Both the position numbers and the translations under genes were made by a program. The notes under the pieces are model-generated. The model made no database searches, was not told the origin of the DNA, and saw only the letters and a list, made by a program, of their open reading frames with translations. Positions 3,201 through 32,772 of a stretch of 61,758 nt of DNA are shown one piece after another. Positions within the stretch are counted from its first letter, which is position 1. Every line of letters starts with the position of its first letter. Origin of the DNA: an uncultured Bacilli bacterium (GTDB lineage Bacteria > Bacillota_I > Bacilli_A > RF39 > UBA660); assembly GCA_947600335.1 (NCBI GenBank), contig CANQGB010000002.1, forward strand, positions 1-61,758, given 5' to 3'.

Positions 3201-3918
3201 AGTATTCCCAAAAAATCTCAGTATTTCTAATATTATTATTTTCTTTTAAAGCAGATTTAGTAATTTCCTTTTTAACAGGTATTTCTTTAACTCTTGTACT
3301 TTTATATTCTTTAAGCAACTTAGGCATTTCTTTAATTACATTATCCACATATTTTAAAACTTTAGTTTCTGCAACCCCTAAAATTTGACTAACCTCTTCC
3401 AAATTCTTTTTTTCTGTATGAATGCCATAATAATATTTAAAGGCAATTCTTTCATCTTGATTCTCATGTAGCATTAAAGCATTACTTAAAACATCTTCGC
3501 TTGCTTGAAGCATTCTTATCAATTGTGTTTTTGAAACTATAGAATCTGAATTTTTAAAAGCATCTTTTTCTTTACTTAAAATATTTTTTTGATAAGCTAT
3601 TAATTCACTATCATTTTTATCTAAAATGATATGCTCAATTACTACTAAAGACTTATTTTCTTTTTCTTGTAAAATCAGCATGAATTTTAACAATTCTTCA
3701 ATTCGAAATAAGATACTATCTAATTTAAAATCATCAGCATAAGAAAATATTATCATATCTCGGTCTTTTCCATCAAACTTTGGTCCAAATTTCTTTTGTA
3801 ATAATTCCATTGAGCTTTTGGCTTTTCTAAAACGTTTAAGAACTATATCGATAAATTCTTTAGGATAATCTTTAAATAATTCATACAATGATTTTACTTG
3901 TTTATTATACTTCATCAT
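277..3918 (-). CDS. Giant (1213 aa) internally repetitive protein of unknown function. It has an N-terminal ~235-aa domain ending in a sigma-70 region-4-like HTH, nine tandem 82-102 aa modules, and a C-terminal ~140-aa domain with a second region-4-like HTH
   Basis: Uninterrupted ORF with an AGAGGT RBS 5 nt before the ATG. N-terminal segment ERIAFKYYYGIHTEKKNLEEVSQILGVAETKVLKYVDNVIKEM and C-terminal segment LKEQKLIYLKLLALSNSDITDSIIADTLGLSIEDVKEY both resemble sigma region 4. Modules start near aa 235, 334, 429, 529, 631, 722, 809, 900 and 982. Confidence 0.85.
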   Translation of the reverse strand: MMKYNKQVKSLYELFKDYPKEFIDIVLKRFRKAKSSMELLQKKFGPKFDGKDRDMIIFSYADDFKLDSILFRIEELLKFMLILQEKENKSLVVIEHIILDKNDSELIAYQKNILSKEKDAFKNSDSIVSKTQLIRMLQASEDVLSNALMLHENQDERIAFKYYYGIHTEKKNLEEVSQILGVAETKVLKYVDNVIKEMPKLLKEYKSTRVKEIPVKKEITKSALKENNNIRNTEIFWEYFITDNMSVEEQDLVKAKLNLIIEGEIKKQVESFILLKQILTNGLETNINLKKLTNEQKCILNKCKKTIKKYINLSPEEIKIILKVNLKIKNKDKTFMSYFVNDNMTLEEQELIKQKVNLIIDIKIKKQVKSFIDLKQMLANGLETSISEIQNINVVYSCNRLIKKYLNKDINELKKEYESPVKIKKKLQTLLDYFVNDSMTLEEQDLIRQKVNLIIELKIKKQVNSFVIFRHIFPDGLDTNVNLITLTDEQKYTLRKCQMIIAKYIDLSLEEIAIKLATKPKAIKIKTKIFLDYFINEDMTLEEQDLIKQKIKLIIDLEIKKQVVSFSELEQILINGVETDVKSLKLTREQKYTLKNCRKIIAKYIDLSLEELTLKLKSKKKVKDKKKKSKTFLSYFVNEDMSLEQKNIIREKVELIMALENSVPFKKIQTILTNGLDSEIVLKNLSKTTINYLYSVIKVIRQYLSYDKETIVETINGKIKSLTLMDYFIKQEASKDEISELERKLEQILLDYRDCENQYAQVIIAVTNGDIHKPIDKFENNIQRSNFYVGIKQITKILQSGIYKKRKKCMLDYLTESELTSQELTELKVKYQIVMEYKVASNVKHYQLINNLTQGDIKALIDFKEFNRSDKVLFRDGVKSLKRYLDLSLDEIKVKFNIKNLLECLTSQNLEFLEVQKLQQKVYEELANNQFPEYAIISKLTHKKVLTNIKFYELSQQDLDLFNKGLVILTKRLNMDDKRAKSFMSYIEKNQNEELAILRKKVELIFKTKKSKSLINLKSLLNNGIDSMVNTSKFNKKEQKIFYNGIRYIKLWLNKEIIASQISEEKDNLIDKNEIYEEYKTLKTDLVIYRDIQDGLSIDNIISLHQYSLDTVLTSLIDNIEIYDVNKLVLYIATNYPTYIAMLLSSNYFAPYLKELTLKEQKLIYLKLLALSNSDITDSIIADTLGLSIEDVKEYQIMSKYDEINALNLVLKK
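700..3216 (-). repeat. In-frame tandem coding repeats (9 modules). Modules 1-4 (about 2029-3216) are still recognisable at the DNA level with a 287-305 bp period
   Basis: The string (g)ttcttctaaagtcat... recurs near 2290, 2590 and 2877, with diverged copies near 1985 and 3172. Protein motif: F(L/M)xYF(V/I)N(D/E)xM(T/S)LEEQxLIxQK(V/I)xLIIxxxIKKQV...LTxEQKxxLxxCxxxIxKYIxLSxEEI. Confidence 0.8.
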
Positions 3919-3931
3919 TTCTACCTCTTTT

Positions 3932-3983
3932 CAAAAAAACATTCAAAATAATAGGTTAGATTACCTAATAATTTGAATGTTTT
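3932..3983 (-). terminator. Long hairpin plus U-tract lying between the DUF362 stop and the RBS of the giant gene. It is either a terminator or a leader attenuator
   Basis: Arms 3937-3956 and 3963-3982 pair at 18 of 20 positions (AAACATTCAAAATAATAGGT / ACCTAATAATTTGAATGTTT) around a 6-nt loop. The plus-strand A7 run 3933-3939 is the U-run on the minus transcript and ends about 14 nt before the giant gene's start codon. Confidence 0.55.
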
Positions 3984-4063
3984 AAATTTTTAAATATTAT
4001 CTCAACTATTTTAGCCACCTAAAAATAGGTTAGCACAAATTTAACCGCGTTGCAATTATTTTC

Positions 4064-11978: not shown

Positions 11979-12180
11979 AATTTCGCTCTTCCTTTTTATT
12001 AAGTTGCTATTATAAATATTTTTTATCCATTTGTAAAGTCCATATTTTTGCAAACAAAAAGACCATAAGGCCTTTTCTCAAGAATAAAGGAAGGTGAAAT
12101 ATGAAATATATTGAAAGGTCTTTACTCCTTTCACTAATAAACTATGAACTTTTTTTAAATTTGTTTGTATTATTGTCACC

Positions 12181-13762: not shown

Positions 13763-14662
13763 ACTATCGAGCATATCTTGAAAATACTTGGGCAAATCAG
13801 CTTCAAAATGTAGGTGTTCATTTTTAATGGGATGTCTAAAATCAAGGGTATGAGAATGCAAGAATTGGCCAAACTCGGTTGCTTTTTTGGAATTATATAC
13901 GGGGTCATTAAATATTGGATAACCAATGTAGGCCATATGGACTCTAATTTGATGCGTCCGCCCTGTTTCTAAATTTAATTTGATTAAAGTATAATCTTTA
14001 TATCTTTTTAACACGGTTAAATGCGTAATAGCTTCTTTACTATTTTGGCTAGTCACAGCCATTTTTTTCCGATTTTTCATATCTCGCCCAATCGGGGCAT
14101 CAATCGTCGCTTTATTATGGGGAAATACTCCACAAATAAGAGCAATATATTCTCTTTTAATATTATGTTTCTTAAATTCTTCGCTTAAAATTTGATGAGC
14201 TTGATTATTCTTTGCCGCGAGCATCAATCCCGAAGTATCTTTATCTAAACGATGGACAATTCCCGGTCTCTCTTCATCGACATCACTTAAATTTTGCGTA
14301 TAATATAACAGCCCATTTGCTAAAGTATTGTCTTTATTTCCACTACCTGGATGAACTACAACCCCACTTTCTTTATTAATGACAATAATATCATCATCTT
14401 CATAGACAATATCAATATCCATTTTTTGGGGTTTAATATGTTCTTCTTTTTGATATTCTTTGACAATTTCTATTACATCTGAAGCATTCAATTTATAACT
14501 TGGTTTAGTAGGTTTATTATTAACCAAAATATCTTCTTGCTCAATCATTTTATTGATTTGGCTTCTAGAATAAGCCGTTTGTTCACTTAAATACTTATCA
14601 ACTCGTCCTCCCCCTTCCGTAACTCTAATTTCCAATTTTATCTTCTCCTTTAATAATGGCAA
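13742..14662 (-). CDS. rluD: RluA-family 23S rRNA pseudouridine synthase (RluD-like)
   Basis: An S4-like N-terminus (RVDKYL) and the catalytic motif HRLDKDTSGL. The real start is probably the TTG at 14635, 9 nt after an AAGGAG; the ORF track start at 14662 is also a TTG. Confidence 0.85.
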   Translation of the reverse strand: MPLLKEKIKLEIRVTEGGGRVDKYLSEQTAYSRSQINKMIEQEDILVNNKPTKPSYKLNASDVIEIVKEYQKEEHIKPQKMDIDIVYEDDDIIVINKESGVVVHPGSGNKDNTLANGLLYYTQNLSDVDEERPGIVHRLDKDTSGLMLAAKNNQAHQILSEEFKKHNIKREYIALICGVFPHNKATIDAPIGRDMKNRKKMAVTSQNSKEAITHLTVLKRYKDYTLIKLNLETGRTHQIRVHMAYIGYPIFNDPVYNSKKATEFGQFLHSHTLDFRHPIKNEHLHFEADLPKYFQDMLDSLEEIEN

Positions 14663-15086
14663 TAATTAATAATATTACCCCGACAACTATAAAAGTATCA
14701 GCTAAATTAAATACCGGATAATTATAATTAAAAATTCTAAACGCTAAAAAATCACGCACATAACCTAAAAAAAGTCGGTCAATCAAATTGCCAATTATTC
14801 CTCCCATTAACAACCCAAAAGCCATATTGTTCCGGAAATTATTTTTAAAATTATACATATAACGATATATTATTAATAATGAAAGAACACTACACAAAAC
14901 TAAGATAGTTAATCGCCCATTTAAAAGATTCCAAGCGGCCCCACTGTTTTCTAAATATTGTAACGTAAAAAAATTCGGAATAACTTTTAAACTCGAATTA
15001 ACTGTTAATTTAATGGAAACAATTATTTTACTAAATTGGTCAAGTATTAATGCAATCACGGCATAAGAAAATATCTTTATATTCAT
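14625..15086 (-). CDS. lspA: Lipoprotein signal peptidase II
   Basis: 153 aa with 4 TM helices. Motifs NSGAAWN and FNLADTFIVVG. The lspA-rluD gene order is typical. Confidence 0.9.
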   Translation of the reverse strand: MNIKIFSYAVIALILDQFSKIIVSIKLTVNSSLKVIPNFFTLQYLENSGAAWNLLNGRLTILVLCSVLSLLIIYRYMYNFKNNFRNNMAFGLLMGGIIGNLIDRLFLGYVRDFLAFRIFNYNYPVFNLADTFIVVGVILLIIAIIKGEDKIGN

Positions 15087-15122
15087 AAATCCACTTCCTT
15101 AAGTATTATACCAGCCGCCCTT

Positions 15123-15344
15123 TTAAATTTCAACTAAGATGACATCTTCGCCAATTTTCTTAATATCATTCATTCTAATATTTACCTCACTATTACTTCT
15201 GAAAAAGCGAAAAAAGCGCGGTAAAGCCACGACAAAATATTCGATTGTTCCATTTTCTGTTATTTCAATATCGATTATTCGCCCTATTCTTCGGCCATCA
15301 ATTATACTAATTACATCTTTGGCTTGCATTTCTGCCACTCGCAT
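15123..15344 (-). CDS. YlmC/YmxH-family (PRC-barrel) sporulation protein
   Basis: 73 aa. MRVAEMQAKDVISIIDGRRIGRIIDIEITENGTIEY matches the YlmC/YmxH pattern. Confidence 0.75.
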   Translation of the reverse strand: MRVAEMQAKDVISIIDGRRIGRIIDIEITENGTIEYFVVALPRFFRFFRSNSEVNIRMNDIKKIGEDVILVEI

Positions 15345-15390
15345 AAACTACCACCACTTAATGGTATGGTATTTTTTCATTTTTAGAACT

Positions 15391-15414
15391 AAAAAAATCT
15401 TCTTTTCAGAAGAC
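15391..15414 (-). terminator. Terminator after the surface-protein gene
   Basis: The minus strand reads TCTTCT-GAAA-AGAAGA followed by T7. Confidence 0.6.
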
Positions 15415-15423
15415 TTTAATTTT

Positions 15424-16050
15424 TTATATTTTATATAAAGTATTTTTCTTACGAGAAATTGTAAATACTCCAATTCCTAAAGCTAAGCCACCAATAACTA
15501 CCACATATGGAACAAAATTTCCTGTTTGTGGATTTTTAACACATTCACTATTATAAACGTTTTCTGTTACAACATTACCATCTTTACCATAGTATTTTCC
15601 ATCAACTACTTTACATGTATAACTTTCAGTTACTGTAACTGGATCGCCACAAGTAATTTGACCATCATCATAACATGGTACTAATTTAACATTACATTTT
15701 TGGGTAGCATCATTAATCTTAAATACGATAGTAGCTATTTGGAAACTATCACCTGATACACTTTGAGAAGCTTTAAAACTTAAACTAGTTCCACTAGAAT
15801 AATCTGTCCAAGGAGATGTCGCTTTGATACTCTTAATTGACATATTTTCTAAAGTTAAAGTCGCTGTAAATTGACTAATTGTACTATTATTAGTTGTTTT
15901 TCCAATAATATAGCAAGTCTTTGTTACAGATCCATCAGTTTCATAAACTTTTTCATCACATCTAAAACCATTAAAATCTAAAGCAGCATTGGCTTTTATT
16001 GGTAAAGCTATCATTATTGTCAAAATTAATAAGCTTAATACTTTTTTCAT
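15424..16050 (-). CDS. Secreted cell-wall-anchored protein with a sortase-B-type sorting signal (NPQTG)
   Basis: Signal peptide MKKVLSLLILTIMIALPIKANA. The C-terminus is NPQTGN + FVPYVVVIGGLALGIGVFTI + SRKKN. The ATG at 16050 has an AAGAAAGAGG RBS. Confidence 0.8.
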   Translation of the reverse strand: MKKVLSLLILTIMIALPIKANAALDFNGFRCDEKVYETDGSVTKTCYIIGKTTNNSTISQFTATLTLENMSIKSIKATSPWTDYSSGTSLSFKASQSVSGDSFQIATIVFKINDATQKCNVKLVPCYDDGQITCGDPVTVTESYTCKVVDGKYYGKDGNVVTENVYNSECVKNPQTGNFVPYVVVIGGLALGIGVFTISRKKNTLYKI

Positions 16051-16126
16051 TTCTATAATACCTCTTTCTTCTTTACTTATATTATGCTTCAATTATATCA
16101 TAAAAATTCATAATTACTAGTCATTT

Positions 16127-16141
16127 TTACAAAATTTGTAA
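16127..16141. promoter_or_regulatory. 15-bp perfect palindrome TTACAAA-A-TTTGTAA in the divergent sortase/substrate intergenic region
   Basis: Read directly from the sequence. It is a candidate operator; no binding factor is known. Confidence 0.35.
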
Positions 16142-16286
16142 AATAATCACGAATTTTAGCATTATTTAAAATTAATAAATCAATTATAATTCTAAAATTT
16201 TCTTTTCTAATCTTACTATTTTAATATTAAAATCTCCATTTTTATGTTATTATAATAAAGTAAGAATATAAATGGTGGTGATATAT

Positions 16287-17834
16287 ATGAAAAAGATTCT
16301 AATTAGTATTAAAAATGATTCTTTAGCTTTTTCATATAAAATTTCTACAAGAACCAACATCGAATTATTAAACACCAATATCATTAGTGATAATGAATTA
16401 TTATTTAGTGAAGACTATATTCGTGATAATAATAAAATAGTTAGCCTATTTATTAAAGAACTATGTCAAGAAAGAAATTTATATAAAGCCATTATTGAAA
16501 CCAACGCCTTAGCCTTAATTATTTTAGATTTATTTAAAAGAAATCCTCTTATTACCGCGATTAGTATTCAGGAAAATGTTACTTTATCTTTTGCTGTCTA
16601 CGAAAAACTTTTAGAAAATAAAAATATAAACTATATTGAAGCTCAAAGCATTCAACAATTTATGTTAGAATTACTAGACAAAAACAATATTCATGGGGAA
16701 AGCCGAGCTGAAGTTTTATATCTAAGTAATTTCATGGTTAATAATAACTTAACTAATTTTTCTAAAATTTTCTATAAAATGAATATTCGGATCAATAACT
16801 ATTTAAAACCTGATGATATTGATGATTTACAAGCTTTTTTTAATATTAATAAATACTTAAAAAATATTCATTTAGATGTTTTTTACAAAAGTGATTTAGA
16901 AGTCATTATCAACTTTCTTCTAAAATACAAGATTAAAAATATTAAGATTTTAATTTATGAAAACATTCAAGAGAGCAAAGTTATTGAATATTTAAAAAAA
17001 ATAAATAAAAAATTAAGCAAAAAACGAATTAAAATTGAACTTGTTTATTCTCAAGAATATTTAAAAAGTGCCATCTTTAAACAAATTATTGTTAACACTA
17101 TTAAAGCATGTGGTGTTTTAATCTTAGCCATAGTTTCTGGTACTTTAAGTTATGTTGGTATAAGCAATTATTTTTCTTTACAAGAAGTTACCAAAATCCA
17201 AGAGACTGTTAAAAAAACTATTGAAGAAAATAAAGATGAAGACGTTATTATTCCTGAAAGCAGTTTTGAAATTAAAAATAATTATATCGCCTCTTTACTC
17301 TCAATTAACCAAGATGTTATGGGTTGGTTAAAAGTTAACAACACCAATATTGATTATCCCGTAGTTCGCGGTACAGATAATGAATACTATTTAAACTATA
17401 ACTTATATCATGAAAAAGATATTAATGGTTGGGTATTTATGGATTATCGTAATTCAATCTATAATTTAGATACTAACACCATTATCTATGCCCATAATCG
17501 TTATTACAGTGGTGTTATGTTTGGCAGTCTATACAAAGCTTATAACAGTAGCTGGTATAAAAATCCGGAAAATCAAATTATTTCATTTAACACTTTATAT
17601 GAAACCAATAATTATCAAATATTCTCTATATATAAAACTCCTAAAACCATCGATTACTTAAAAACCTATTTTGCTAATGATGATGAATACAACAGCTATA
17701 TCAATATGGTTAAAAGTAGAAGCATTTACGATTTTGGCATCACAATTAATACCAACGATAAAATATTAACCTTATCAACTTGTAGCAACAATAATCAAAG
17801 ATTAGTTATTCATGCTAAATTAATAACCGACTAA
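16287..17834 (+). CDS. srtB: Class B sortase with an unusual ~270-aa N-terminal cytoplasmic extension
   Basis: The C-terminal ~230 aa align by eye with S. aureus SrtB (VMGWLKVNNTNIDYPVVRGTDNEYYL, NTIIYAHN, ILTLSTC, RLVIHAKL). A single TM helix lies near aa 285-310. The ATG at 16287 follows a GGTGGTG RBS. Confidence 0.85.
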   Translation: MKKILISIKNDSLAFSYKISTRTNIELLNTNIISDNELLFSEDYIRDNNKIVSLFIKELCQERNLYKAIIETNALALIILDLFKRNPLITAISIQENVTLSFAVYEKLLENKNINYIEAQSIQQFMLELLDKNNIHGESRAEVLYLSNFMVNNNLTNFSKIFYKMNIRINNYLKPDDIDDLQAFFNINKYLKNIHLDVFYKSDLEVIINFLLKYKIKNIKILIYENIQESKVIEYLKKINKKLSKKRIKIELVYSQEYLKSAIFKQIIVNTIKACGVLILAIVSGTLSYVGISNYFSLQEVTKIQETVKKTIEENKDEDVIIPESSFEIKNNYIASLLSINQDVMGWLKVNNTNIDYPVVRGTDNEYYLNYNLYHEKDINGWVFMDYRNSIYNLDTNTIIYAHNRYYSGVMFGSLYKAYNSSWYKNPENQIISFNTLYETNNYQIFSIYKTPKTIDYLKTYFANDDEYNSYINMVKSRSIYDFGITINTNDKILTLSTCSNNNQRLVIHAKLITD

Positions 17835-18919
17835 TCTTTTTTTATTTGCTCTTGAAATATTTTAATGTTCTTTTGAATTCTTTCATTATTCGGATTCATC
17901 TTATGTGCCAAATTTGCATACTCTAAAGCTTCAGAAAAATGTTCTGTATAAAAACAAACTACACTAAATAAATCATAAAAATAATAATTCCAACAAAACT
18001 CTTCATTAATATAAGTTTTTGGCTTTTCCTTAATTTCACTTGCCGACTTTAAAAGTTGATAGGCCTTCAAATAATTTTGTTCATCATAATATAACATTGC
18101 TAATTCTACATACCCTTCTCTTAAATAAGGCGCTTCGGCAATAGCTAATTCATAATACATTTTCGCCTCTCTCACGCGCTTTAAACCTTGATAATCTTTG
18201 GCTATAAAACGCATAGAAGCTGCCCGTTCATCTCGCCAAGTACTTGTTTTCAAATCTAAATGTTTAATTAACGTATCAATACTTTCATTATATTTTTTAT
18301 AGTACATATACTCTCGCCCTAAATAATGTAAATTTCGGTCATCTTCGGGGTCTTCTTGCACTGAAAGTTCTAAAAGGGGTAAATAACTTCCTCGACTTTT
18401 CGCATAATCTTGATGATGATTTAGGACAATTCCTTCCACAATAATACTTTTCTCCTGCGAACCGGTAAACTTTAAAACTTCATGCACCGGATGATACCAA
18501 GTATATTGTTTATCATGAATTTTCGAAATATAAAATGTCGTTCCTGGATTACCATACTCATCAAAACTCCAATTATATAAATACTCTACTTTCGTTGGTT
18601 TTTCTTTTAACCAAGCACTTTCTAATTTTTCGCGCCATCCCGGGTCAAATGCCTCATCAAAATCAGTACAAACGCAAACATCCGCATCCTCTGGTACTAA
18701 AGCCAAAGACTTATTGCGCGCAACATCAAATCGAAAATTTTCAAACTTTTCGGTAACTACATTAACCCCCAATTTTTTTAATTTTTCTACCGTATCATCA
18801 GTTGACCCAGTATCTAATACATATATCCCATCGGTTTCACTCATGCTTCGCACATAATCTTCAACATACTTACTTTCATTTTTACAAATGGCATATGCAT
18901 AAATTTTTAGTTTTTTCAT
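17831..18919 (-). CDS. Family-2 glycosyltransferase fused to TPR repeats
   Basis: The N-terminus YAICKNESKYVEDYV...LDTGSTDDT...CTDFDE has a GT2-like fold with a DxD motif. The C-terminal half is TPR-like (YYELAIAEAPYLREGYVELAMLYY...). Confidence 0.7.
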   Translation of the reverse strand: MKKLKIYAYAICKNESKYVEDYVRSMSETDGIYVLDTGSTDDTVEKLKKLGVNVVTEKFENFRFDVARNKSLALVPEDADVCVCTDFDEAFDPGWREKLESAWLKEKPTKVEYLYNWSFDEYGNPGTTFYISKIHDKQYTWYHPVHEVLKFTGSQEKSIIVEGIVLNHHQDYAKSRGSYLPLLELSVQEDPEDDRNLHYLGREYMYYKKYNESIDTLIKHLDLKTSTWRDERAASMRFIAKDYQGLKRVREAKMYYELAIAEAPYLREGYVELAMLYYDEQNYLKAYQLLKSASEIKEKPKTYINEEFCWNYYFYDLFSVVCFYTEHFSEALEYANLAHKMNPNNERIQKNIKIFQEQIKKD

Positions 18920-19011
18920 CCAATACCTCCGTTTAATTATATTAAAAAAAGATATTTTTATTAAATTGAGGCTTAGATTTTTTTAATATACGATTTTATT
19001 AATTAATTTCC

Positions 19012-19035
19012 AAAAAAAATAGAGCCTAAGCTCTA
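19012..19035 (-). terminator. efp terminator
   Basis: The minus strand reads TAGAGC-TTAG-GCTCTA followed by T8. It overlaps the efp stop codon. Confidence 0.7.
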
Positions 19036-19586
19036 CTTGAATATTTACCATCTTTTGTGGAAATAATAATTTTTTCTCCAGTTTCAATAAATAATGGCAC
19101 TTTAACAGTATAGCCTGTTTCAATCGTGGCATCTTTCATTGCGTTATTAGCTGTATTACCTTTAACAGCTGGTTCAGTTGCCGTTACTTCAAACTCGATT
19201 TTTTCTGGTAAAGTTATCCCAATAATTTCACCTTCATAAAAATCAATCATAATTTCTAAGTTTTCTTTTAAGAATTTTTTATCGTCTCCTAAAACATTAG
19301 ATGGTATTTCAATTTGTTCATAAGTATTAGAATCCATAAATACATAATTGTCACCAGATAAATATAAATATTGCATTGGTGATTTAGTAATATGAGCTCT
19401 ATCTACTTTAGTTCCCGAATTGAATGATACTTCAGTAATAGAACCACTTTTTAAATTCTTTAGTTTCATTTTAACAAATGCGGCACCTTTACCAGGTTTA
19501 ACATGAGAAAATTCTAAAACTACACAAGGACTACCATCAACCATGATAGTCATGCCATTTTTAATATCGTTTACACTAATATTCAT
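19026..19586 (-). CDS. efp: Elongation factor P
   Basis: 186 aa. The motif SHVKPGKGAAFVKMKLKNL and the overall EF-P pattern. Confidence 0.95.
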   Translation of the reverse strand: MNISVNDIKNGMTIMVDGSPCVVLEFSHVKPGKGAAFVKMKLKNLKSGSITEVSFNSGTKVDRAHITKSPMQYLYLSGDNYVFMDSNTYEQIEIPSNVLGDDKKFLKENLEIMIDFYEGEIIGITLPEKIEFEVTATEPAVKGNTANNAMKDATIETGYTVKVPLFIETGEKIIISTKDGKYSSRA

Positions 19587-19603: not shown

Positions 19604-19777
19604 TTATTTTCCTAATTTGGTTTCTTTAAATACAGTCGTTTTTTTACAATTTGGACAATATTTTTTTAATTCAACTTTATCAGGAGTATTTTTTTTGTTT
19701 TTAATAGATGGTCTTCTACTGTATCCACATTCTGTACATTTCATACCAAAAAATACTCTATTTAAATTTTTTGCCAT
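19604..19777 (-). CDS. rpmG: 50S ribosomal protein L33 (zinc-ribbon form)
   Basis: MAKNLNRVFFGMKCTECGYSRRPSIKNKKNTPDKVELKKYCPNCKKTTVFKETK. The ATG at 19777 follows a GGAGG RBS. The ORF track's longer N-terminus is unlikely. Confidence 0.85.
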   Translation of the reverse strand: MAKNLNRVFFGMKCTECGYSRRPSIKNKKNTPDKVELKKYCPNCKKTTVFKETKLGK

Positions 19778-19867
19778 GTAAGATGCCTCCTTTTCTTTAA
19801 AACTATATGTAGTATATCGTAAATTAGGCATATTTGCAATAAATAAAGGGATATGACTTAGAATAGT

Positions 19868-21181
19868 TTAAAAATTTATAGGTACGATTTCACAGCCTCT
19901 TTTTATTTCTTGAATTTCCGCGGCATATAAAATCTTTCTAGTTGCCAATTTCCGGGCCATTTTTTCCAATAAATCTTTATTTAAAGCAATAATCTCTTTA
20001 GCCTTTAGATAATATTGATAAACTTGACTAGATATGACATATTCTTGAGATTCTTTTAGTTTATTAGAAATATCAAATGAATTTGAAAAATAATTAAATC
20101 CACAGATACAATCATCTAAAACTAAGTTTTTTACTAAACTAAAAGCTTTACTATAATCTTTACGAGCCCCAGAATCAACGATTCCAAATTTTTGTTCCAA
20201 GGCGGCCATTCCCCCTAAACTTATTAAAATGTTATATTTCATCCAATTCATATTTTCCATGCTAACATCTCGATAAATAGAGGTAAAACCCCCAGAGTTT
20301 CCTTCTTTCCCATAAGCTGTGATTAGACTAACACTTCCGGGCATTAATACTTCGGATATCAAAGCGTGTCCAACCTCATGATATATAATTCTTGATGAAA
20401 GCTCATTTCTATTTTGTAAATTGTCTAACCAATTATTACTTTCTTCTTCCCGAGCCACGGAAACTTTAAAAATAATTTGTAAACAAGCTTTTAAAATATG
20501 TTGCATAGTAATGTATTTTTCTCTTTCAAACCCAGCATATATCCCCGCTTGATTTATAACGGTTTCTAGTTCGGCACATGAACAACCATTTAAAATCTTC
20601 GCTAAAGATTTTATGTCTACATCTATTTTCATCTTTTTATTATTCAAATAATATTTAATGATATTTAAAGCATCCTCACCTACCGGATTTTTAATTTCGA
20701 TTCTTTGGTCAAATCGACCGGCTCTTAAAAGTGAATCCGGTAAATTTAGAATATTATTAGCGGTAGCTAAAACAAAGACATCCCGGCCTTTTACCTCATC
20801 AATACATGATTGGACGGTAACATATTCTTCGGCATCCTTGCGATGAATATCCCCATTCGCAAACTTATCCATATCATCTAAAAAGATTATCGCTGGGGCA
20901 TTATCTAAAGCCTTTTTAAACATACTTTTTAAATGATTGATAAAATCACCATTGGGTTTATCTTTTCGACAAACAAAACACTTTAAACCGGATGCCTCTA
21001 CTAAGCAATTAGCCATTAATGTTTTTCCAACTCCTGGTTCACCATAAAGTAACAAACCATTGGGTTTTGTTATTCCTAATTCAGAATATACTTTATCATT
21101 TTTTAAGATATCAGCAATTTGTTTTAATTCTTTTTTTACTGCACTATATCCAATAATTTTTTCAAATTCTTTCATACACAT
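19868..21181 (-). CDS. Soluble FtsH-like protein with no TM segments: an AAA+ ATPase fused to an M41-type zinc metalloprotease (HEVGH)
   Basis: Walker A GEPGVGKT, Walker B IIFLDDMD, second-region-of-homology-like LLRAGRFD, then HEVGHAL. There is no hydrophobic N-terminus. The start is at 21181 or 21175. Confidence 0.8.
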   Translation of the reverse strand: MCMKEFEKIIGYSAVKKELKQIADILKNDKVYSELGITKPNGLLLYGEPGVGKTLMANCLVEASGLKCFVCRKDKPNGDFINHLKSMFKKALDNAPAIIFLDDMDKFANGDIHRKDAEEYVTVQSCIDEVKGRDVFVLATANNILNLPDSLLRAGRFDQRIEIKNPVGEDALNIIKYYLNNKKMKIDVDIKSLAKILNGCSCAELETVINQAGIYAGFEREKYITMQHILKACLQIIFKVSVAREEESNNWLDNLQNRNELSSRIIYHEVGHALISEVLMPGSVSLITAYGKEGNSGGFTSIYRDVSMENMNWMKYNILISLGGMAALEQKFGIVDSGARKDYSKAFSLVKNLVLDDCICGFNYFSNSFDISNKLKESQEYVISSQVYQYYLKAKEIIALNKDLLEKMARKLATRKILYAAEIQEIKRGCEIVPINF

Positions 21182-21248
21182 ACTTCTTTCTTTTTTAAGA
21201 TTGAAGGTATTATATAAAAAGAAATGTACCATTTTTAGTACATTTTCA

Positions 21249-22223
21249 TTAATTTTTATACTTATCTATTCCCTTTAATAAATCCTTTTTAATTTGTTCT
21301 CTTAAAGTTAAAGGCGATATTATTTCTACACTGTTAAGATACTGCATAGCCCAATATTTCATGGCATTCGGACTAGCTTTAACGGTTACTTTAATGGTAT
21401 CTTCATTTTCTTCCATTTGGACATTGGTCCCAAACCATTCGACAATATCATCAATAATTGCTTTCTTCGCTCCAAAGACTATCGTTTGTAAATCATCAGT
21501 AAACAAATAAGGATAAGACGTTGATAATTCTTCATAATTAATTCCTTGTTCATAACCTTTTATATTATGAATATCTGTTAATTTATTATCGGTTAAAGAT
21601 ATATTGGTAATATGATCAACCCGATAATAAACAATATTTTGATAATACTCATGTAGAGCCATTAAATAATAATGTTGATTATGAACAATTAATTGATAAG
21701 GACTTACAGTATGACTCTTCGTAAAATGCAATTTTTTATCAATACCATATTTATTATAATCAAACTTAATTTGTAATTCTTTTTCAATAGCTTCATCAAT
21801 TTGTTCTATATTATAAAATAAACTTTTAGATTCCGTTTTATTCCATTCATTAACCGAGTAAATATTTTTAACATGGGCTTGAAAATACTTATTAGCTAAA
21901 CTACATAACTTATAAATTAAATCTTTAGAATAAGTAGCATTGATATATTTACTACATAAGACCCCATCAATTAAAACTCTTAATTCCGAATCTTCAAAAT
22001 CTCTTTCTTCTAAATAATTACCTAAATGGTTAGTTTCAATGGCATATCCCGCTTCTTTTAATAAAGATATATTTCGGCCAATGGCTTTTCTTTCAATAAT
22101 TATCCCATAATCATTTTCCAAATACTTTGCAATATCTTCTTGCGTTAAAGGATGATTTATATCCGTATGTTTTTTTAAAATATCTAAAATTCTTAATAAA
22201 GCCAATTTTTTCGATTCATTCAT
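21249..22223 (-). CDS. WYL-domain transcriptional regulator (wHTH-WYL-WCX, YafY/PafBC/BrxR-like architecture)
   Basis: N-terminal wHTH LRILDILKKHTDINHPLTQEDIAKYLENDYGIIIERKAIGRNISLLKEAGYAI. WYL-like core SPYQLIVHNQHYYLMALH...YYRVDHITNI. C-terminal WCX-like segment YWAMQYLNSVEIISPLTLREQI. AAGGTGA RBS. Confidence 0.8.
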   Translation of the reverse strand: MNESKKLALLRILDILKKHTDINHPLTQEDIAKYLENDYGIIIERKAIGRNISLLKEAGYAIETNHLGNYLEERDFEDSELRVLIDGVLCSKYINATYSKDLIYKLCSLANKYFQAHVKNIYSVNEWNKTESKSLFYNIEQIDEAIEKELQIKFDYNKYGIDKKLHFTKSHTVSPYQLIVHNQHYYLMALHEYYQNIVYYRVDHITNISLTDNKLTDIHNIKGYEQGINYEELSTSYPYLFTDDLQTIVFGAKKAIIDDIVEWFGTNVQMEENEDTIKVTVKASPNAMKYWAMQYLNSVEIISPLTLREQIKKDLLKGIDKYKN

Positions 22224-22270: not shown

Positions 22271-22299
22271 AAAAAAAGAATAGAAACTAAGTCTATTCT
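22271..22299 (-). terminator. rpoC terminator
   Basis: The minus strand reads AGAATAGA-CTTAGTT-TCTATTCT followed by T7, starting at the rpoC stop codon. Confidence 0.75.
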
Positions 22300-25200
22300 T
22301 AATTAATCGGGTCAACTACTTCAGAACTATTGTCCATTAATTTTTCTTCCAGCATTTCATCTGGTTCATCACTCATAAATTCTTTTTCTAAAAGGATTTC
22401 AATATCGCTATATTGTTTAGCTCCTGTTCCAGCTGGAATTAATTTACCAATAATAACGTTTTCTTTTAATCCTCTTAAGTAATCAATTTTACCTTTAATG
22501 GCTGCATCCGTTAAAACTTTTGTTGTTTCTTGGAATGAAGCAGCTGATAAGAAGGAATCAGTTTCAAGAGATGATTTAGTAATACCAAGCATTAGTGGTC
22601 GACCTTTAGCTGGAACACCACCTCTTAGAATAACCGGTTTATTACCTTCAGTAAATTCACGCATCGAAACAGTTAAACCTTCTACAAAGTCAGTATCACC
22701 TTTATCGATAATCCGAACTTTATTAGTCATACGAGAGGCAATAATTTCGATATGTTTATCAGAAATATCAACACCTTGTAATTTATATACCATTTGAATT
22801 TCTTTTAAGATATATTCTTGCGCGGTAATTGGGTCAGTAACGGCTAGTAATTCTTTAGGACTTATAGCACCTTCAGTTAATTTATCACCAGCATTTACTA
22901 CATCGCCAACATTAACTCTAATTTTCATATTATAGTTAGTTACATGCTCACGAACTTCCACATCGTTGGCAATAACAATTTTATATTTGCCATTTTGTTC
23001 TTCAATAGATTCAATTTTACCACTAATTTCTGCGATAGTTGCTTTACCTTTAGGGTTACGAGCTTCGAATAATTCTTCAACTCTTGGAAGACCTTGGGTA
23101 ATATCATCGCCCCCAGCAACACCACCAGAGTGGAATGTCCGCATGGTAAGTTGGGTACCAGGCTCACCAATTGATTGAGCAGCCATAATACCAACAGCTT
23201 CACCAGTTTCAACTAAGTTACCAGTTGCTAAGTTACGACCATAACATTTTTGACAAACGCCATTTTCGCATTTACATGTAAGAATTGAACGAATTTCTAC
23301 GCGTTTAATCCCGGCTTTTTCAATTTTAGCGACGATATTTTCGTTAATTTCTTCGCCTTTTTCTAAGATAACTTCTTTAGTCGTTGGATTGATAATTCTT
23401 TGCGCTGAATAACGACCTAAAATACGTTCTGATAAAGGCTCAATTACCGAACCATCTTTATCATTAATTAAATCGTATACTTCGACACCATTAATTGAAC
23501 CACAATCGTATTCGCGAACAATTATATCTTGAACAACATCAACTAACCGTCTAGTTAAATATCCTGAATCGGCAGTACGAAGAGCAGTATCGGCAGAACC
23601 TTTTCTAGAACCATGGCTAGATAAGAAGAATTCTGATACGCTTAAGCCTTCAATAAAGTTTGATGTAATTGGGATTTCAACAGTTGAACCATCTGGTTTA
23701 GCCATTAAACCCCGCATACCAGCAAGTTGAACGAAATTCGAAATAGAACCACGAGCTCCAGAGTTCATCATCATGAATAATGGATTATCAAAATCACCTT
23801 TAGCCATCGCTTGTAATTCGGCTTTAATTTTATCGCTTTGTTTTGTCCAAGCTTCAATAACATTATTATAACGTTCTTCTTCCGTTATTAAACCACGTTT
23901 AAATTGTTTATTAATTTTATCAACTAATTCATTACCTTCTGCAATGATTTGGTCTTTAGTTTCACTAACTTTAATATCAGCAGCCGAAACTGTAATACCA
24001 GCGATAGTAGAATATTTAAATCCTAAATCTTTTAATTTATCAAGCATTACAGATGTTTCAGTTGTTTTATATCTTTTAAAGACTTGGGCAATAATACTTT
24101 CCAAATTTTTCTTGATAAATGGTTGCACTAAATCGCGTTTTTCCACTTCTTCTTTAATATTTGAACCCATATCAATAAAATATTTACTTGGCGTAATTCC
24201 TTCGATATTTTCTTTAGTTGGTTCATTTATAAATGGGAAAGTATCTGGTAAAATCTCGTTGAAAATAATTTTACCACAAGTAGTTATTAAATATTTATCT
24301 TTTTGGTCATCCATAAATAATTTATGTTTGAAAGAACGAACAGGAACAACAATTCTCGTATGAAGAGTTATTTCTTTTCGGGCATAAGCCATTAATACCT
24401 CATTAGAATCTTTATAAACTTTAGCCTCATTAGGTTCGCCAGCTTTTTCAATAGTTAAGTAGCAGTTACCTAATACCATATCTTGGGATGGGGTAACGAT
24501 TGGTTTACCATCTTTTGGGTTTAAGATGTTATTAGCCCCTAACATTAATATTCTAGCTTCGGCTTTAGCTTCTTCCGAAAGTGGTACATGGACAGCCATT
24601 TGGTCACCATCGAAATCGGCGTTGAATGCGGCACAAACAAGTGGATGTAACCGGATAGCTTTACCACCAACTAATTTTGGTTCGAAGGCTTGAATACCTA
24701 GTCTATGTAAAGTTGGAGCCCGGTTTAGCATTACTGGGTGTTCAGTTATAACATCTTCCACAACATCCCAAACTTGGTCATCACGAGCTTCAATTAATTT
24801 TTTCGCACCTTTAATATTATGGGCTAAACCTCTTTCAACTAAGCCATGAATAACATGCGGTTTAAATAGTTCCAAAGCCATTTCTTTTGGAATACCACAT
24901 TGATACATTTTTAAGTTTGGTCCAACAACGATAACACTACGACCAGAATAGTCGACACGTTTACCTAATAAGTTTTGACGGAAACGACCTTGTTTACCTT
25001 TTAAGATACTAGATAAACTCTTAAGTGGCCGATTACCAGCAGCGGTTACACTTCTTCCTCTTCGACCATTGTCAATTAAGCTATCAACAGCTTCTTGAAG
25101 CATTCTCTTTTCATTTTGAACAATGATAGTTGGAGCTCCAAGTTCCAGTAATTTTTTTAAACGATTATTCCGGTTAATAATTCTTCGATATAAGTCATTT

Positions 25201-30723: not shown

Positions 30724-32772
30724 CTAGTAAAGTTTTCGTGATAATTTTTGTGATTCATTTAAAGAAATTCGGCGGTTATCTTTCGTTATTAAAACACAGT
30801 CGTTGTTATCTATCGGTGCATTATCTAAAAGCAAAATAGCAGAATAATTTTCCAAATTCATTAAAACTTCCCAAAGTGCCTTTTTAATTGAATATTCAAC
30901 AATATTGCTTAAAGACCTAGCTCCAGTTTTCAATTTCATTGCTTGTTCAATAACATTATCGATATAACCCTCAGTCCACATTAATTGAATATTTAGTTGT
31001 GATAGCTTTTTTTGTAATAAGATTAAAGGACTTTTACTTGAAGACAACAAAATATTTTTTAAACTTTCTTTCGTATGACCTGAAAGTTGGACAATAATAT
31101 TGAAGCGTCCAATTAATTCAACTGGCATATGGCCATATTTGACAAAATCTTCTTGTTCTAATTTAACATAAGTGATATCTTCTTGTGGTTTAGTTTCTAA
31201 ATTAGCTAGATAACCAGCTTTACATTCGTGATATAATGTTCCAATACTATTTTTGGCTTTCGCTTCCGCTACATCAGTAAATGCTCCAGTAGCCAAGATT
31301 GTTAATTTAGAGGTATTAAACAGAATCATTCGCCCATTATATTCGACATTATAAGTTGTGCCTTGAAAAAATGCAAGAAATGTATTTAAAACGCCTTTTC
31401 CACTTACATGGCTATTAGATTCTGAACCCTTTTTATCTATTTCATCAAAAACAATAATACCTTCTTCAGCTTTTTCAACTATCCCATTAGCTTTAACTAA
31501 AAGTTGACGTAAAAAATCTTCAATGCTAGCCCCAACATAACCGGGCATAGTTAATTGAGTTGTATCGACAATTAATAAAGGTATATCTAAATATTCACTA
31601 ATAGTTTCCGCAATTAAAGTTTTACCACTACCTGTTGGTCCCACTAACAAACAAGACTTCTTGACGCGCTTATCTCCAACTTTATTCATAACAATAGTCG
31701 AAATTACATCTCTTTTAGCTTCTTCTTGCCCAATAACCACTTTATCCAAATATTTCTTCATTTTGGGAACATTTATTTGAGGTAATTTAGTTTTATTGTT
31801 CGATTTATCTTCTATAGCTGGAACTGGCATTTCTTCTGGTCTTAAATAATTTTGATAAGTTGCATAATTTTTAGCTATTTTTTGCATTCGTTGTTTGGAA
31901 CTTTCATGGATAGCCCTAATAGATGCTTTAATTAATTCTAAATCATTTAATTTTAATAACCTATCATAAGTATTTACTAAAGTATATAAAAATTCATTAG
32001 CCAAATTCGTATTCTTCGCATTTAGTGTATCTAACCAAACACTTAATTCCGTATAATAATCAATTAATTCATTGATACTTTTTTTCATTTCATCTAAATT
32101 ATCAAGACTAGCAAAAGCCTCATAACTTTGATTAAAAATATCTAATAATTCTTGACCATTATGCCAATATTCTTTCTTTTCGATTATTTCATCATTATCT
32201 ATAAAATTCTTAATTTGATTTAATTTAGTCATTACTTCATCATAAGTTTTGGAACTAATTAAGTCATTAAATAATTCTTCATTAATTAGAATGTTCATTT
32301 TTTCCTCATTAGCTTCCGGGATGTTAGATAATTCGGGTTGAGTAATCTTTGAAGCATCAAGATTAATTGTATGATTAGTAATGTGTAAATCATCAAGACT
32401 TAGGTTATAAAACATTTCTTTTAAATTTAAGGGAACTAAAGCAATAATATCTCTATCGGGTAAATAAAAACCTAAACTGGATATATCATAAATCTCATCA
32501 AAGTACCTAGATTTAGCCTCAACGATACTACAATCGGGATACTTAGCTAATAAATCACTTTCAGAAATAATGTAGCCAACACCACTTTGGTTTTCACTGT
32601 AAGTCATTTCGCCACTATAAATTGGAAAATACTCCATACCTATTGTATCTTGAAAATAAACATAATCATCTTCAATTATTTCTTGACCTTCGATAATGGC
32701 TGAAGGATTAAAATAATAAATATCTTCACTTAAATTAATTTTGATCATTAATATTGCATATTTTGTTTCCAT
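30724..32772 (-). CDS. ClpX-family AAA+ ATPase lacking the ClpX zinc-ribbon, with a novel ~340-aa N-terminal domain
   Basis: Residues ~340-682 match ClpX by eye: YLDKVVIGQEEAK, Walker A GPTGSGKT, pore loop GYVG, Walker B IIVFDEIDK, ELIGRFN, sensor-2 TGARSL. There is no N-terminal CxxC pair. Confidence 0.8.
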   Translation of the reverse strand: METKYAILMIKINLSEDIYYFNPSAIIEGQEIIEDDYVYFQDTIGMEYFPIYSGEMTYSENQSGVGYIISESDLLAKYPDCSIVEAKSRYFDEIYDISSLGFYLPDRDIIALVPLNLKEMFYNLSLDDLHITNHTINLDASKITQPELSNIPEANEEKMNILINEELFNDLISSKTYDEVMTKLNQIKNFIDNDEIIEKKEYWHNGQELLDIFNQSYEAFASLDNLDEMKKSINELIDYYTELSVWLDTLNAKNTNLANEFLYTLVNTYDRLLKLNDLELIKASIRAIHESSKQRMQKIAKNYATYQNYLRPEEMPVPAIEDKSNNKTKLPQINVPKMKKYLDKVVIGQEEAKRDVISTIVMNKVGDKRVKKSCLLVGPTGSGKTLIAETISEYLDIPLLIVDTTQLTMPGYVGASIEDFLRQLLVKANGIVEKAEEGIIVFDEIDKKGSESNSHVSGKGVLNTFLAFFQGTTYNVEYNGRMILFNTSKLTILATGAFTDVAEAKAKNSIGTLYHECKAGYLANLETKPQEDITYVKLEQEDFVKYGHMPVELIGRFNIIVQLSGHTKESLKNILLSSSKSPLILLQKKLSQLNIQLMWTEGYIDNVIEQAMKLKTGARSLSNIVEYSIKKALWEVLMNLENYSAILLLDNAPIDNNDCVLITKDNRRISLNESQKLSRKLY

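Follow-up and report, generated by a model that had tools for sequence, protein, structure and literature searches.

The characterised regulators of the WYL family that sense single-stranded DNA (ssDNA) come from Actinobacteria, Caulobacter, Acinetobacter and a small number of defence systems. DriD of Caulobacter crescentus is a WYL activator of an SOS-independent damage response. According to the report on its promoters (PMC13004042), the DriD site overlaps the -35 position and lies equally far from the -10 element in all regulated promoters, the promoters are without a recognisable -35 element, and the driD promoter is bidirectional. BrxR and CapW, the repressors of BREX and CBASS systems, are encoded immediately upstream of the genes that they control and bind inverted repeats. 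The genes of PafBC, a WYL/WCX regulator of Actinobacteria, lie in the pafA operon beside those of the proteasome. PafBC is a heterodimer of two paralogues that needs RNA polymerase to bind DNA (PMC13004042). Its large regulon of DNA-damage genes is switched on from a site that takes the place of the -35 element, a mode called 'sigma adaptation' (PMC11804915, PMC13004042). DdaA of Moraxellaceae is a WYL activator with the site CGWCA-N5-TGWCG, which co-regulates repair genes with defence genes for CRISPR-Cas and restriction-modification (PMC12392091). SiwR of Mycobacterium smegmatis is a WYL activator with a palindromic site that controls adjacent genes after genotoxic stress (PMC10693628). The subject of this study is a pair of genes from an uncultured Bacilli bacterium, one for a WYL-family regulator and one for a soluble FtsH-like metalloprotease, here called AAA-M41. 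The pair is located in a 61,758-nucleotide stretch of contig CANQGB010000002.1, which was analysed as a whole and is referred to as the window. The WYL protein very probably controls the protease through a palindromic operator that is located between the two genes.

A literature search found no equivalent WYL regulon described for Firmicutes, and no description of this family of FtsH-like proteases lacking transmembrane (TM) helices; nothing relevant emerged on a TM-less FtsH in Firmicutes.

Palindromic operator in the promoter of the protease gene

Coordinates of genes are positions in the window, and the rpoB, rpoC, WYL and AAA-M41 genes are all encoded on the minus strand. The first-pass annotation had reported two minus-strand open reading frames (ORFs), a WYL regulator and an AAA-M41 protein with the motifs GEPGVGKT, IIFLDDMD, LLRAGRFD and HEVGH, all of which are present. 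It had assigned about 437 residues to the protease and placed it 68 nt downstream of the regulator. The gene itself stands, and its start is more likely ATG 21175 (MKEFEK), as indicated by alignment of the 5' region with that of the closest relative locus (L003), which results in a protein of 435 residues and a spacer of 73 nt. The elements of the pair are:

22223 to 21249, minus strand: WYL-family transcription regulator gene, 324 aa; winged helix-turn-helix (wHTH), helical bundle, WYL, WCX
21223 to 21244, strand-neutral: palindromic operator, 22-mer; predicted site, 24.4 bits
21209 to 21214, minus strand: TATAAT -10 box of the AAA-M41 promoter; 8 nt past the 22-mer, 10 nt past the 18-bp core
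21232 to 19868, minus strand: AAA-M41 ORF in its longest form, 454 aa
19868 to 21175, minus strand: AAA-M41 gene, TM-less FtsH-like; 435 aa from ATG 21175, or 437 aa from ATG 21181

The operator is a palindrome of the type TGTACC-N6-GGTACA. Its 18-bp core in the window (21225-21242) reads TGTACT-AAAAAT-GGTACA on the gene strand and lies inside the 73-nt spacer, where AAAATGTACTAAAAATGGTACATTT is followed by CTTTTTA and TATAAT. The same element is located in the same place in L003, where AACATGTACCAAATATGGTACATGTT is followed by TTATTT and then TATAAT. The operator is the only strong site of the 61.7-kb window, the next best scoring 10.7 bits, and the exact palindrome arms occur there once, with 0.08 matches expected by chance. 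A palindromic operator had been anticipated upstream of position 22223; none is located there, nor does the promoter of the WYL gene in the window contain a site in the weight-matrix scan, and the operator lies instead between the two genes.

When up to one mismatch is allowed, many loci have the element 35-60 nt before the start codons of their protease, WYL, SNF2 and SpoVK-like genes. The weight matrix obtained by iteration has the consensus aATG[T/C]ACC[A/G]AATT[T/C]GGT[A/G]CATt. A scan of 163 related loci, 1.77 Mb in total, with a threshold of at least 12 bits identified 248 sites, compared with 12-24 in shuffled sequence. The sites are distributed among gene families of the same loci as follows:

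AAA-M41 genes with an upstream site: 40 of 86, at a median distance of 41 nt from the start codon
WYL genes with an upstream site: 35 of 111
SpoVK-like AAA genes with an upstream site: 17 of 20
SNF2 helicase genes with an upstream site: 13 of 16
All other genes with an upstream site: 101 of 1519, a set in which true regulon members remain

In 94 non-identical promoters, including that of the window, TATAAT is positioned exactly 8 nt past the 22-mer. The base frequencies of the -10 box in these promoters are T.87, A.90, T.69, A.73, A.74 and T.80. An extended -10 TG is usual in operator-bearing promoters, and there is no -35 consensus. Because the spacing from the 22-mer to the -10 box is fixed, the palindrome covers approximately positions -42 to -21, the place of the -35 element. 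The operator is conserved across genomes with GC contents of 28-50% and also occurs upstream of genes without a convergent or preceding ORF. Among the operator-bearing protease genes of the species set, 22 of 34 have no WYL gene within 6 kb, which implies control in trans.

Where the protease gene is divergent from a gene of a distant WYL subfamily (36-42% identity), one degenerate operator, ATGnnnC...GnnnCAT, is located between the two genes, and -10-like hexamers could be recognised by eye 8 nt off both operator ends in L019, L024, L056 and L063. The divergent intergenic regions (L019, L024, L031, L056, L063) are approximately 110-130 nt long, and the inner arms of their operators, TGGGAG, TGAGAC and TGTGAC, differ from those of the main subfamily; these differences may covary with the distant WYL subfamily. 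The box of GlnR and TnrA, TGTNA-N7-TNACA, was considered as an identity of the palindrome and rejected, because the palindrome is one base longer, has C and not A at position 5, and has no nitrogen-metabolism genes among its targets.

Genomic linkage of the WYL and protease genes

Linkage was assessed in 80 species loci centred on the protease gene and in 80 metagenome loci chosen for an orthologue of the WYL protein (55-61% identity). In 34 of the 80 species loci, the AAA-M41 gene has a WYL homologue within 6 kb, and this is the only strongly recurrent neighbour and the only recurrent gene of the regulator type. The expectation by chance is approximately 1.5%, assuming a genome of about 2.5 Mb; Firmicutes genomes contain 2.8 WYL genes each (PMC6789036). 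The arrangement of the two genes varies: they form same-strand tandems (the window, L003, L064, L076), are divergent (L019, L024, L031, L056, L063), or are separated by one to several genes.

In the reverse direction, the protease is encoded within 10 kb in only about 14 of the 80 loci chosen for the WYL orthologue. Elsewhere, WYL orthologues precede GmrSD-type gene pairs, a DUF2779 gene or a UDG-like gene, and a further operon downstream of WYL encodes an SNF2 helicase, a MoxR-like AAA protein, a DUF2201/vWA protein and a metallophosphoesterase. WYL orthologues are often located directly upstream of GmrSD-type restriction genes, in contexts that are variable and island-like. Since the WYL gene is followed by other genes in most of the orthologue loci, the pair is linked but does not constitute a closed two-gene system. 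The functional link between regulator and protease that the first-pass annotation had proposed is thus borne out by the linkage in 34 of 80 loci and by the conserved operator on the protease promoter. By contrast, its description of the pair as an insulated two-gene unit does not agree with the scarcity of the protease near WYL orthologues, the proteases that bear an operator without a WYL gene nearby, and the presence of the operator on many gene families.

In a group of human-gut contigs (L106, L111, L123-L127, L130, L133-L137, L139), the WYL orthologue is solitary on its strand and has a fixed context of small ORFs, WYL, a UDG-like gene, a gene for a protein of about 600 aa, one for a 216-aa protein and an M16 peptidase gene. 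Only weak sites of approximately 12.5 bits are located upstream of the WYL gene in this group.

A subset of the loci contains a conserved operon encoding a SpoVK-like AAA protein, AAA-M41, a protein of about 280 aa, ClpP and small proteins. It was identified in L006, L008, L010, L013, L015 and L149 (for example L149:~14000-19500). The product of its first gene is an AAA protein similar to SpoVK/CbbX, which is about 680 aa long and has a long extension at its N-terminus, the ClpP-like protease is followed by two small proteins, and the operator is usually located upstream of the first gene. The SpoVK-like neighbour, which is absent from the window, scores 274.6 bits compared with a cut-off of 422.95 (TIGR02881). 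The neighbour of about 280 aa (c3) has no match in Pfam, NCBIfam or the PDB, and its N-terminus resembles ABC/SMC ATPases.

WYL-family regulator

The wHTH-WYL-WCX layout attributed to the regulator by the first-pass annotation is supported by Pfam and by an AlphaFold2 (AF2) model. The Pfam WYL match (3e-10) is above the gathering score, and that to WCX (2.5e-4, 21.8 bits) is just below the cut-off of 23.9 bits. The AF2 model (pLDDT 75) has the order wHTH, helical bundle, WYL and WCX. Orthologues share 60-70% identity, and the protein has more than 3100 homologues. The most similar folds in the PDB, according to Foldseek, are DriD (7e-15), PafBC (3e-12) and CapW/BrxR (~1e-8), with full-length alignments to DriD and PafBC. 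Among solved structures, the sequence profile of the family matches only DriD and PafC (~1e-5).

DriD is the best structural match of the WYL protein and the only full-length sequence-profile match in the PDB, and the two proteins have the same size and domain order. All four promoter features given in the DriD report (PMC13004042) are mirrored here, both operators are palindromic with a short spacer, and both regulons mix repair genes with genes of uncharacterised function. However, the WYL protein is only 15-17% identical to DriD, and the organisms are Firmicutes and Alphaproteobacteria, respectively. The operators also differ, GTACC-N6-GGTAC here and CGAC-N7-GTCG for DriD as given in PMC12392091, and the accessible descriptions of the DriD regulon contain no member resembling AAA-M41. 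Several residues that contact ssDNA in DriD are not kept. Only some of these residues (PMC9186387) could be mapped onto the WYL protein of the window; Y192, which corresponds to Y186, and R207, which corresponds to R201, are kept. This partial mapping makes a ligand of the ssDNA type plausible by analogy for the WYL protein but does not establish it.

PafBC, the second-best fold match, is linked in the genome to a proteolytic machine that depends on an AAA+ ATPase, as the WYL gene is here linked to AAA-M41. By contrast with the PafBC heterodimer, the locus has a single WYL gene and a symmetric palindrome, and the protease of the PafBC system is the 20S proteasome with Mpa, whereas the enzyme here is FtsH-like. 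DdaA and SiwR, which were set beside the WYL protein by their descriptions only, differ in operators and taxa. BrxR and CapW share the wHTH-WYL-WCX layout; however, their fold match is weaker and they have no sequence-profile match. They repress one adjacent system, whereas the operator described here is located on many unlinked promoters, at a fixed position resembling that of an activator site.

AAA-M41 protease

The protease matches the Pfam families AAA (1.5e-19), AAA_lid_3 (3e-7) and Peptidase_M41 (1e-12). It covers positions 160-597 of the NCBIfam FtsH model (TIGR01241), with a score of 172.8 bits compared with a cut-off of 600. Therefore, it corresponds to the cytosolic part of FtsH only, without the N-terminal membrane and periplasmic part. 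Canonical FtsH has two TM helices flanking a periplasmic domain. The maximal 19-residue Kyte-Doolittle hydropathy of AAA-M41 reaches 1.29 overall and 0.7 over the first 60 residues, so that there is no TM helix. The AF2 model (pLDDT 89) has the cytosolic region of FtsH, 3kds, as its top PDB match, with a TM-score of 0.75-0.77 for the monomer, and it also matches AFG3L2 and YME1. The earlier description of a soluble FtsH-like protease without a hydrophobic N-terminus is thus confirmed.

The family has more than 3400 homologues of approximately 435 aa, the best of which are only 56-59% identical to the protein of the window; where they are named, it is as 'AAA family ATPase'. An exhaustive search without profiles resulted in about 150 cluster representatives at 50% identity, which are mostly 415-440 aa long and most of which start at the AAA domain. 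Relatives are encoded in 332 species representatives, and the 80 that were kept are mostly metagenome-assembled genomes of gut and rumen Clostridia and Bacilli. Judged by its sequences, AAA-M41 is a large unnamed family in gut Firmicutes; the NCBIfam scan of the protease from the window returned no family above its cut-off. The catalytic elements, with residue numbers following the 437-aa form, are:

21020 to 21043, minus strand: Walker A motif GEPGVGKT, residues 47-54; G47, P49, G50 and K53 invariant in 48 sequences
20942 to 20959, minus strand: pore-loop-1 region K-P-N-G-D-F, residues 75-80; aligns to K-W-V-G and K-Y-Y-G of VAT
20867 to 20890, minus strand: Walker B motif IIFLDDMD, residues 98-105; aligns to FLDEID of VAT, with the catalytic Glu replaced by Asp
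20366 to 20380, minus strand: HEVGH zinc motif of the M41 domain, residues 268-272; aligns to HEAGHA of the FtsH structures 2dhr and 3kds
20156-20158, minus strand: putative third zinc ligand D342; aligns to the G-A-x-N-D segment of 2dhr and 3kds; invariant

The whole cytosolic fold is shared with FtsH, YME1 and AFG3L2, and the Walker A motif, the sensor-1 asparagine, the arginine fingers, HExxH and the aspartate of the third ligand are kept. N142 (sensor 1) and the arginine fingers R153 and R156 are invariant in the family, and the motif LLRAGRFD is present in the protein of the window. The form HExGH occurs in 82 of 84 family members and HExxH in 83, and the zinc protease site thus looks intact in the alignments. 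By contrast, AAA-M41 differs from FtsH in lacking the TM and periplasmic part, in having only 25% sequence identity, and in its Walker B aspartate, PNG pore loop and invariant cysteines. The Walker B motif is LDD[MLI]D or FDDMD in all 84 members, with DD instead of DE. Pore loop 1 has Lys/Gln-Pro-Asn-Gly in place of aromatic-hydrophobic-Gly and is preceded by a four-residue deletion and an invariant Cys-Arg-Lys; P76, G78 and F80 are invariant, and N77 is found in 43 of 48 sequences. The pore loop of FtsH is MFVG, and the Walker B glutamate and the pore-loop aromatic residue are considered essential for ATP-driven threading of substrates. AAA-M41 is therefore unlikely, from its motifs, to be a canonical processive unfoldase; the DD of Walker B together with the PNG pore loop suggests a slow or ATP-switch-type enzyme acting on accessible substrates. 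It had been argued that a loss of essential AAA or M41 residues would speak against the proposed protease module. This applies in part: the zinc site, Walker A, sensor 1 and arginine fingers are kept, whereas the Walker B glutamate and the pore-loop aromatic residue are invariantly lost.

The cysteines C71, C126, C202, C358 and C430, three of which are invariant and two nearly so, are distributed across the AAA, lid and protease domains; canonical FtsH is without them in the alignments examined. The first-pass annotation had raised a known sporulation AAA family as a possible identity; membership of the SpoVK family was rejected for the protease of the window, because TIGR02881 is not among its 18 NCBIfam matches. 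Identity with the MoxR-vWA 'FtsH ternary systems' that Kaur et al. described (PMC7159879) was likewise rejected, because the AAA domain is double in these ternary systems, which are found in different phyla.

Other genes preceded by the operator

The operator-plus--10 module is located upstream of a gene for a LigA-like NAD-dependent ligase, with a score of 25.7 bits. Further operator-bearing genes encode a UvrD/Rep helicase, a DNA polymerase III alpha fragment, RtcB, NADAR and an HD-domain protein. The operator also precedes a gene for a DnaQ-like exonuclease fused to a CPCC domain and genes for several small proteins without assigned function. The theme of the regulon is nucleic-acid repair and replication together with proteolysis.

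Cysteine-rich CPCC domains (PF14206) recur in operator-controlled genes (L069:4868-5527, L105:11155-12780, L107:5082-5759); one is fused to the DnaQ-like exonuclease and another to BspA-type leucine-rich repeats.

Plasmid pCY186 of Butyrivibrio proteoclasticus, a cultured organism, contains an AAA-M41 homologue with 40% identity and a WYL gene (L081, record positions 118819-136048). Operator-like sites occupy positions 3976-3993 and 12065-12082 of the locus. Such sites precede a gene pair that ends in a PolC-type polymerase. The region also encodes a hydrolase with the metallo-beta-lactamase (MBL) fold, dnaX, a DnaA/Hda-family protein and the PolC-type polymerase.

Proposed regulatory role of the gene pair

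The WYL protein would be the factor that binds the operator, as suggested by the linkage in 34 of 80 loci, the autoregulatory sites at 35 of 111 WYL genes and the operators shared by divergent pairs. Activation rather than repression is favoured, but not proven, because of the rigid spacing, the promoters without a -35 element and the ranking of the folds. The most satisfactory explanation of the locus is a composite one, and it is probably correct: the WYL protein is a ligand-gated activator similar to DriD, and the protease is induced as one member of a dispersed regulon of the damage type.

The WYL protein may be a dimeric, ligand-gated factor of the DriD/PafBC type, produced from an operator-less promoter just past the rpoC terminator. 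The dimer would bind TGTACC-N6-GGTACA at the -35 position of the protease promoter, which is without a -35 element of its own. Binding of a nucleic-acid-derived signal by the WYL and WCX domains would result in recruitment of RNA polymerase, switching on the AAA-M41 protease. The identity of the ligand is proposed by analogy with characterised WYL regulators, and the signal may be ssDNA from damage or from invading DNA. As RNA, the operator of the window forms a predicted hairpin of -8.7 kcal/mol (z = -3.8) that is followed by CUUUUUAU, directly after the stop codon of the WYL gene. With its U-run, this hairpin would insulate the protease from read-through, so that the palindrome may double as a terminator that keeps WYL transcripts out of the protease gene. 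The protease itself would probably be an FtsH-like ring with an intact zinc site, slow or of the ATP-switch type and not a processive unfoldase, and it would cleave particular, probably exposed or damage-associated, proteins. The pair would be a local piece of a dispersed regulon that is conserved in gut Clostridia and Bacilli and that may elsewhere include SNF2 and UvrD helicases, NAD-dependent ligase, exonucleases, nucleases, RtcB, NADAR, SpoVK-like AAA proteins and ClpP. The same operator in front of helicase, ligase, nuclease and polymerase genes makes the pair look like one piece of a regulon in the style of DriD and PafBC.

Several observations weigh against this explanation. The classical damage genes recA and uvrA lie outside the scanned loci; the regulon scan was confined to the loci, so that the recA, uvrA and lexA promoters are outside the scanned set. 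The weight matrix was trained and scored on the same loci, and counts such as the 248 sites are therefore partly circular, whereas the specificity for gene and position is not. No site of at least 12 bits precedes 46 of the 86 AAA-M41 genes, although many of these follow a different gene that bears the operator, or their sites are degenerate. A factor other than the WYL protein could bind the palindrome, and an operator placed over the -35 position also suits a repressor, which BrxR and CapW are. In the putative ssDNA-binding site, R204 of DriD is matched by V198, and RVDH stands in place of the RLDR motif in the WYL protein of the window, the second arginine being replaced by histidine. The GmrSD-type genes that are frequent neighbours of WYL orthologues fit defence as well as repair.

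A role in anti-phage defence, with the WYL protein as a BrxR/CapW-like repressor that silences a toxic or abortive-infection AAA-protease effector until infection is sensed, is unlikely; it is kept under consideration because GmrSD genes are neighbours. The island-like contexts of the WYL orthologues and the position of the operator, compatible with repression, are consistent with such a role. The AAA domain resembles that of the anti-phage ATPase IetA, its best PADLOC match (1.6e-23). IetA, like AAA-M41, is an AAA ATPase of the classical clade associated with protease activity, and the SNF2 neighbour weakly matches the helicases of DISARM and Zorya. DdaA furthermore provides a precedent for a WYL activator over both repair and defence genes (PMC12392091). 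However, the likeness to IetA is limited to the generic AAA core, with an NCBIfam IteA score of 69.4 bits (3e-19) compared with a cut-off of 510. The M41 domain is fused here, whereas IetS is a separate protease, and there is no IetS-like gene between 19000 and 22300. The PADLOC scan of both proteins of the window returned only generic WYL and IetA-like AAA matches and assigned no system; the statement of the first-pass annotation that no named system could be recognised holds for PADLOC as for NCBIfam. In its fold, the WYL protein is closer to DriD and PafBC, which are activators, than to BrxR and CapW, and a rigid spacing from operator to -10 box without a -35 element is a signature of activator-dependent promoters. 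The operator-bearing genes are mostly repair and replication genes (LigA-like ligase, UvrD, exonuclease, polymerase III fragment, RtcB), and the pair of the window lies among core genes and not in a defence island. The repair and replication genes, together with the DriD-like fold and promoter geometry, favour a damage-response regulon over a phage-defence effector. Of the stress- or phage-responsive module that had been suggested for the pair, the first part is thus the better supported.

It is very unlikely that the pair is cargo of mobile elements, that is, a replication and maintenance module borne by plasmids or integrative and conjugative elements, of which the chromosomal copy in the window would be a remnant. 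The gene content and operator-like sites of pCY186 fit this explanation, extra copies of PolC and of the LigA-like ligase recur near the protease gene, and the genomic contexts vary between species. By contrast, only two AAA-M41 loci were found in 2.9 million viral contigs (IMG/VR), and pCY186 is the one close plasmid match, an isolated one, among 72,556 plasmids. The pair has housekeeping flanks both in the window (rpoBC, rpmG, efp) and in L003 (ileS, murF, ddl), its GC content is unremarkable compared with the flanks, and no integrase or transposase was seen beside it in the window. A phage-borne origin was likewise rejected: the phage matches, at 24-30% identity, include annotated ftsH genes, and several are short unannotated records.

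That regulator and protease have no regulatory connection is highly improbable. In that case the palindrome would serve solely as an intrinsic terminator behind the WYL gene, with a constitutive housekeeping protease adjacent by chance. The hairpin and U-run directly past the WYL stop codon would suit a terminator, but the same sequence and not merely the stem recurs at GC contents of 28-50%, also without a convergent or preceding ORF, always 8 nt before the -10 box and 35-60 nt before the start codon, and it lies between the two promoters of divergent pairs, where a terminator makes no sense.

Surroundings of the gene pair

The pair is located between the rpoC terminator and rpmG-efp, with a gene for a glycosyltransferase-TPR protein further downstream. 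The features upstream of the pair are:

29569 to 25958, minus strand: rpoB
25961 to 22299, minus strand: rpoC
22271 to 22300, minus strand: terminator-like hairpin and U-run of rpoC; a 9-bp AT-rich stem, then seven U; overlaps the rpoC stop codon
22252-22244, minus strand: extended -10 element of the WYL gene, TGTTACAAT

The extended -10 element that had been noted upstream of the WYL gene is valid by eye. The terminator behind rpoC had been described as strong; the hairpin is plausible, but its stability (-7.5 kcal/mol, z = -1.75) does not support that adjective, and it was not called by the terminator scan, which demands at least three G-C pairs. The consensus scan for promoters and terminators was uninformative in this AT-rich region, with 14 promoter-like sites compared with 18.6 expected and no terminators. 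The pair had further been said to interrupt the usual gene order behind rpoC. The genes downstream are rpmG and efp, and the pair adjoins rpoC, efp or the L33 gene in none of the 163 related loci; synteny linked to rpoC was rejected because searches of all loci collected by then by tblastn with rpoB, rpoC, L33, efp, the glycosyltransferase and the sortase gave no matches.

Ribosomal protein L33 (rpmG, 19604-19831), encoded directly downstream of the protease, is the cysteine-containing CxxC...CxxC form. Its own promoter-like site, TTGCAA-17-TATACT, starts 29 nt past the stop codon of the protease gene, and there is no terminator between the two genes, so that read-through is possible. Three further genes of the window have unusual products. 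A 1213-aa ORF at 277-3918 on the minus strand, in a region with a GC content of 21-24%, has no Pfam match at E <= 1e-4. The gene at 16272-17834 encodes a sortase-domain protein with an N-terminal extension of about 350 aa without a domain match; no other long gene is on the plus strand in that part of the window, and the local GC content is approximately 21%. Two genes upstream of rpoB, at 30724-32772, a 682-aa Clp/Hsp100-like protein is encoded, which matches only one AAA_2 module and the ClpB D2-small domain.

Implications for gut Firmicutes

WYL activators and FtsH-like proteases are both known kinds of proteins; the regulon in Firmicutes, its operator and the TM-less AAA-M41 family with altered ATPase motifs appear to be new, to judge from the literature searches. 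The operator, being short, palindromic and fixed in its promoter position, provides a handle for mapping a stress regulon in gut Clostridia and Bacilli, which are abundant and mostly uncultured. The AAA-M41 family is of interest for the mechanism of AAA+ enzymes, because it keeps the zinc site of FtsH and yet is invariantly without the Walker B glutamate and the pore-loop aromatic residue.

A more specific proposal, itself quite unlikely, is an SOS-independent response of gut Firmicutes to nucleic-acid damage under a DriD-like WYL activator, with a soluble FtsH-derived metalloprotease as its signature effector. Without processive unfolding, the protease would act on proteins associated with DNA or the replisome, for example clearing DNA-protein crosslinks or stalled complexes, which would make AAA-M41 a functional analogue of the eukaryotic SPRTN/Wss1-Cdc48 pathway. 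Alternatively, it might degrade the activator to reset the response. Should the substrates of the protease be damage-associated proteins, regulated proteolysis would be linked to genome maintenance in these bacteria, in parallel to the long-noted and unexplained linkage of the PafBC and proteasome genes.

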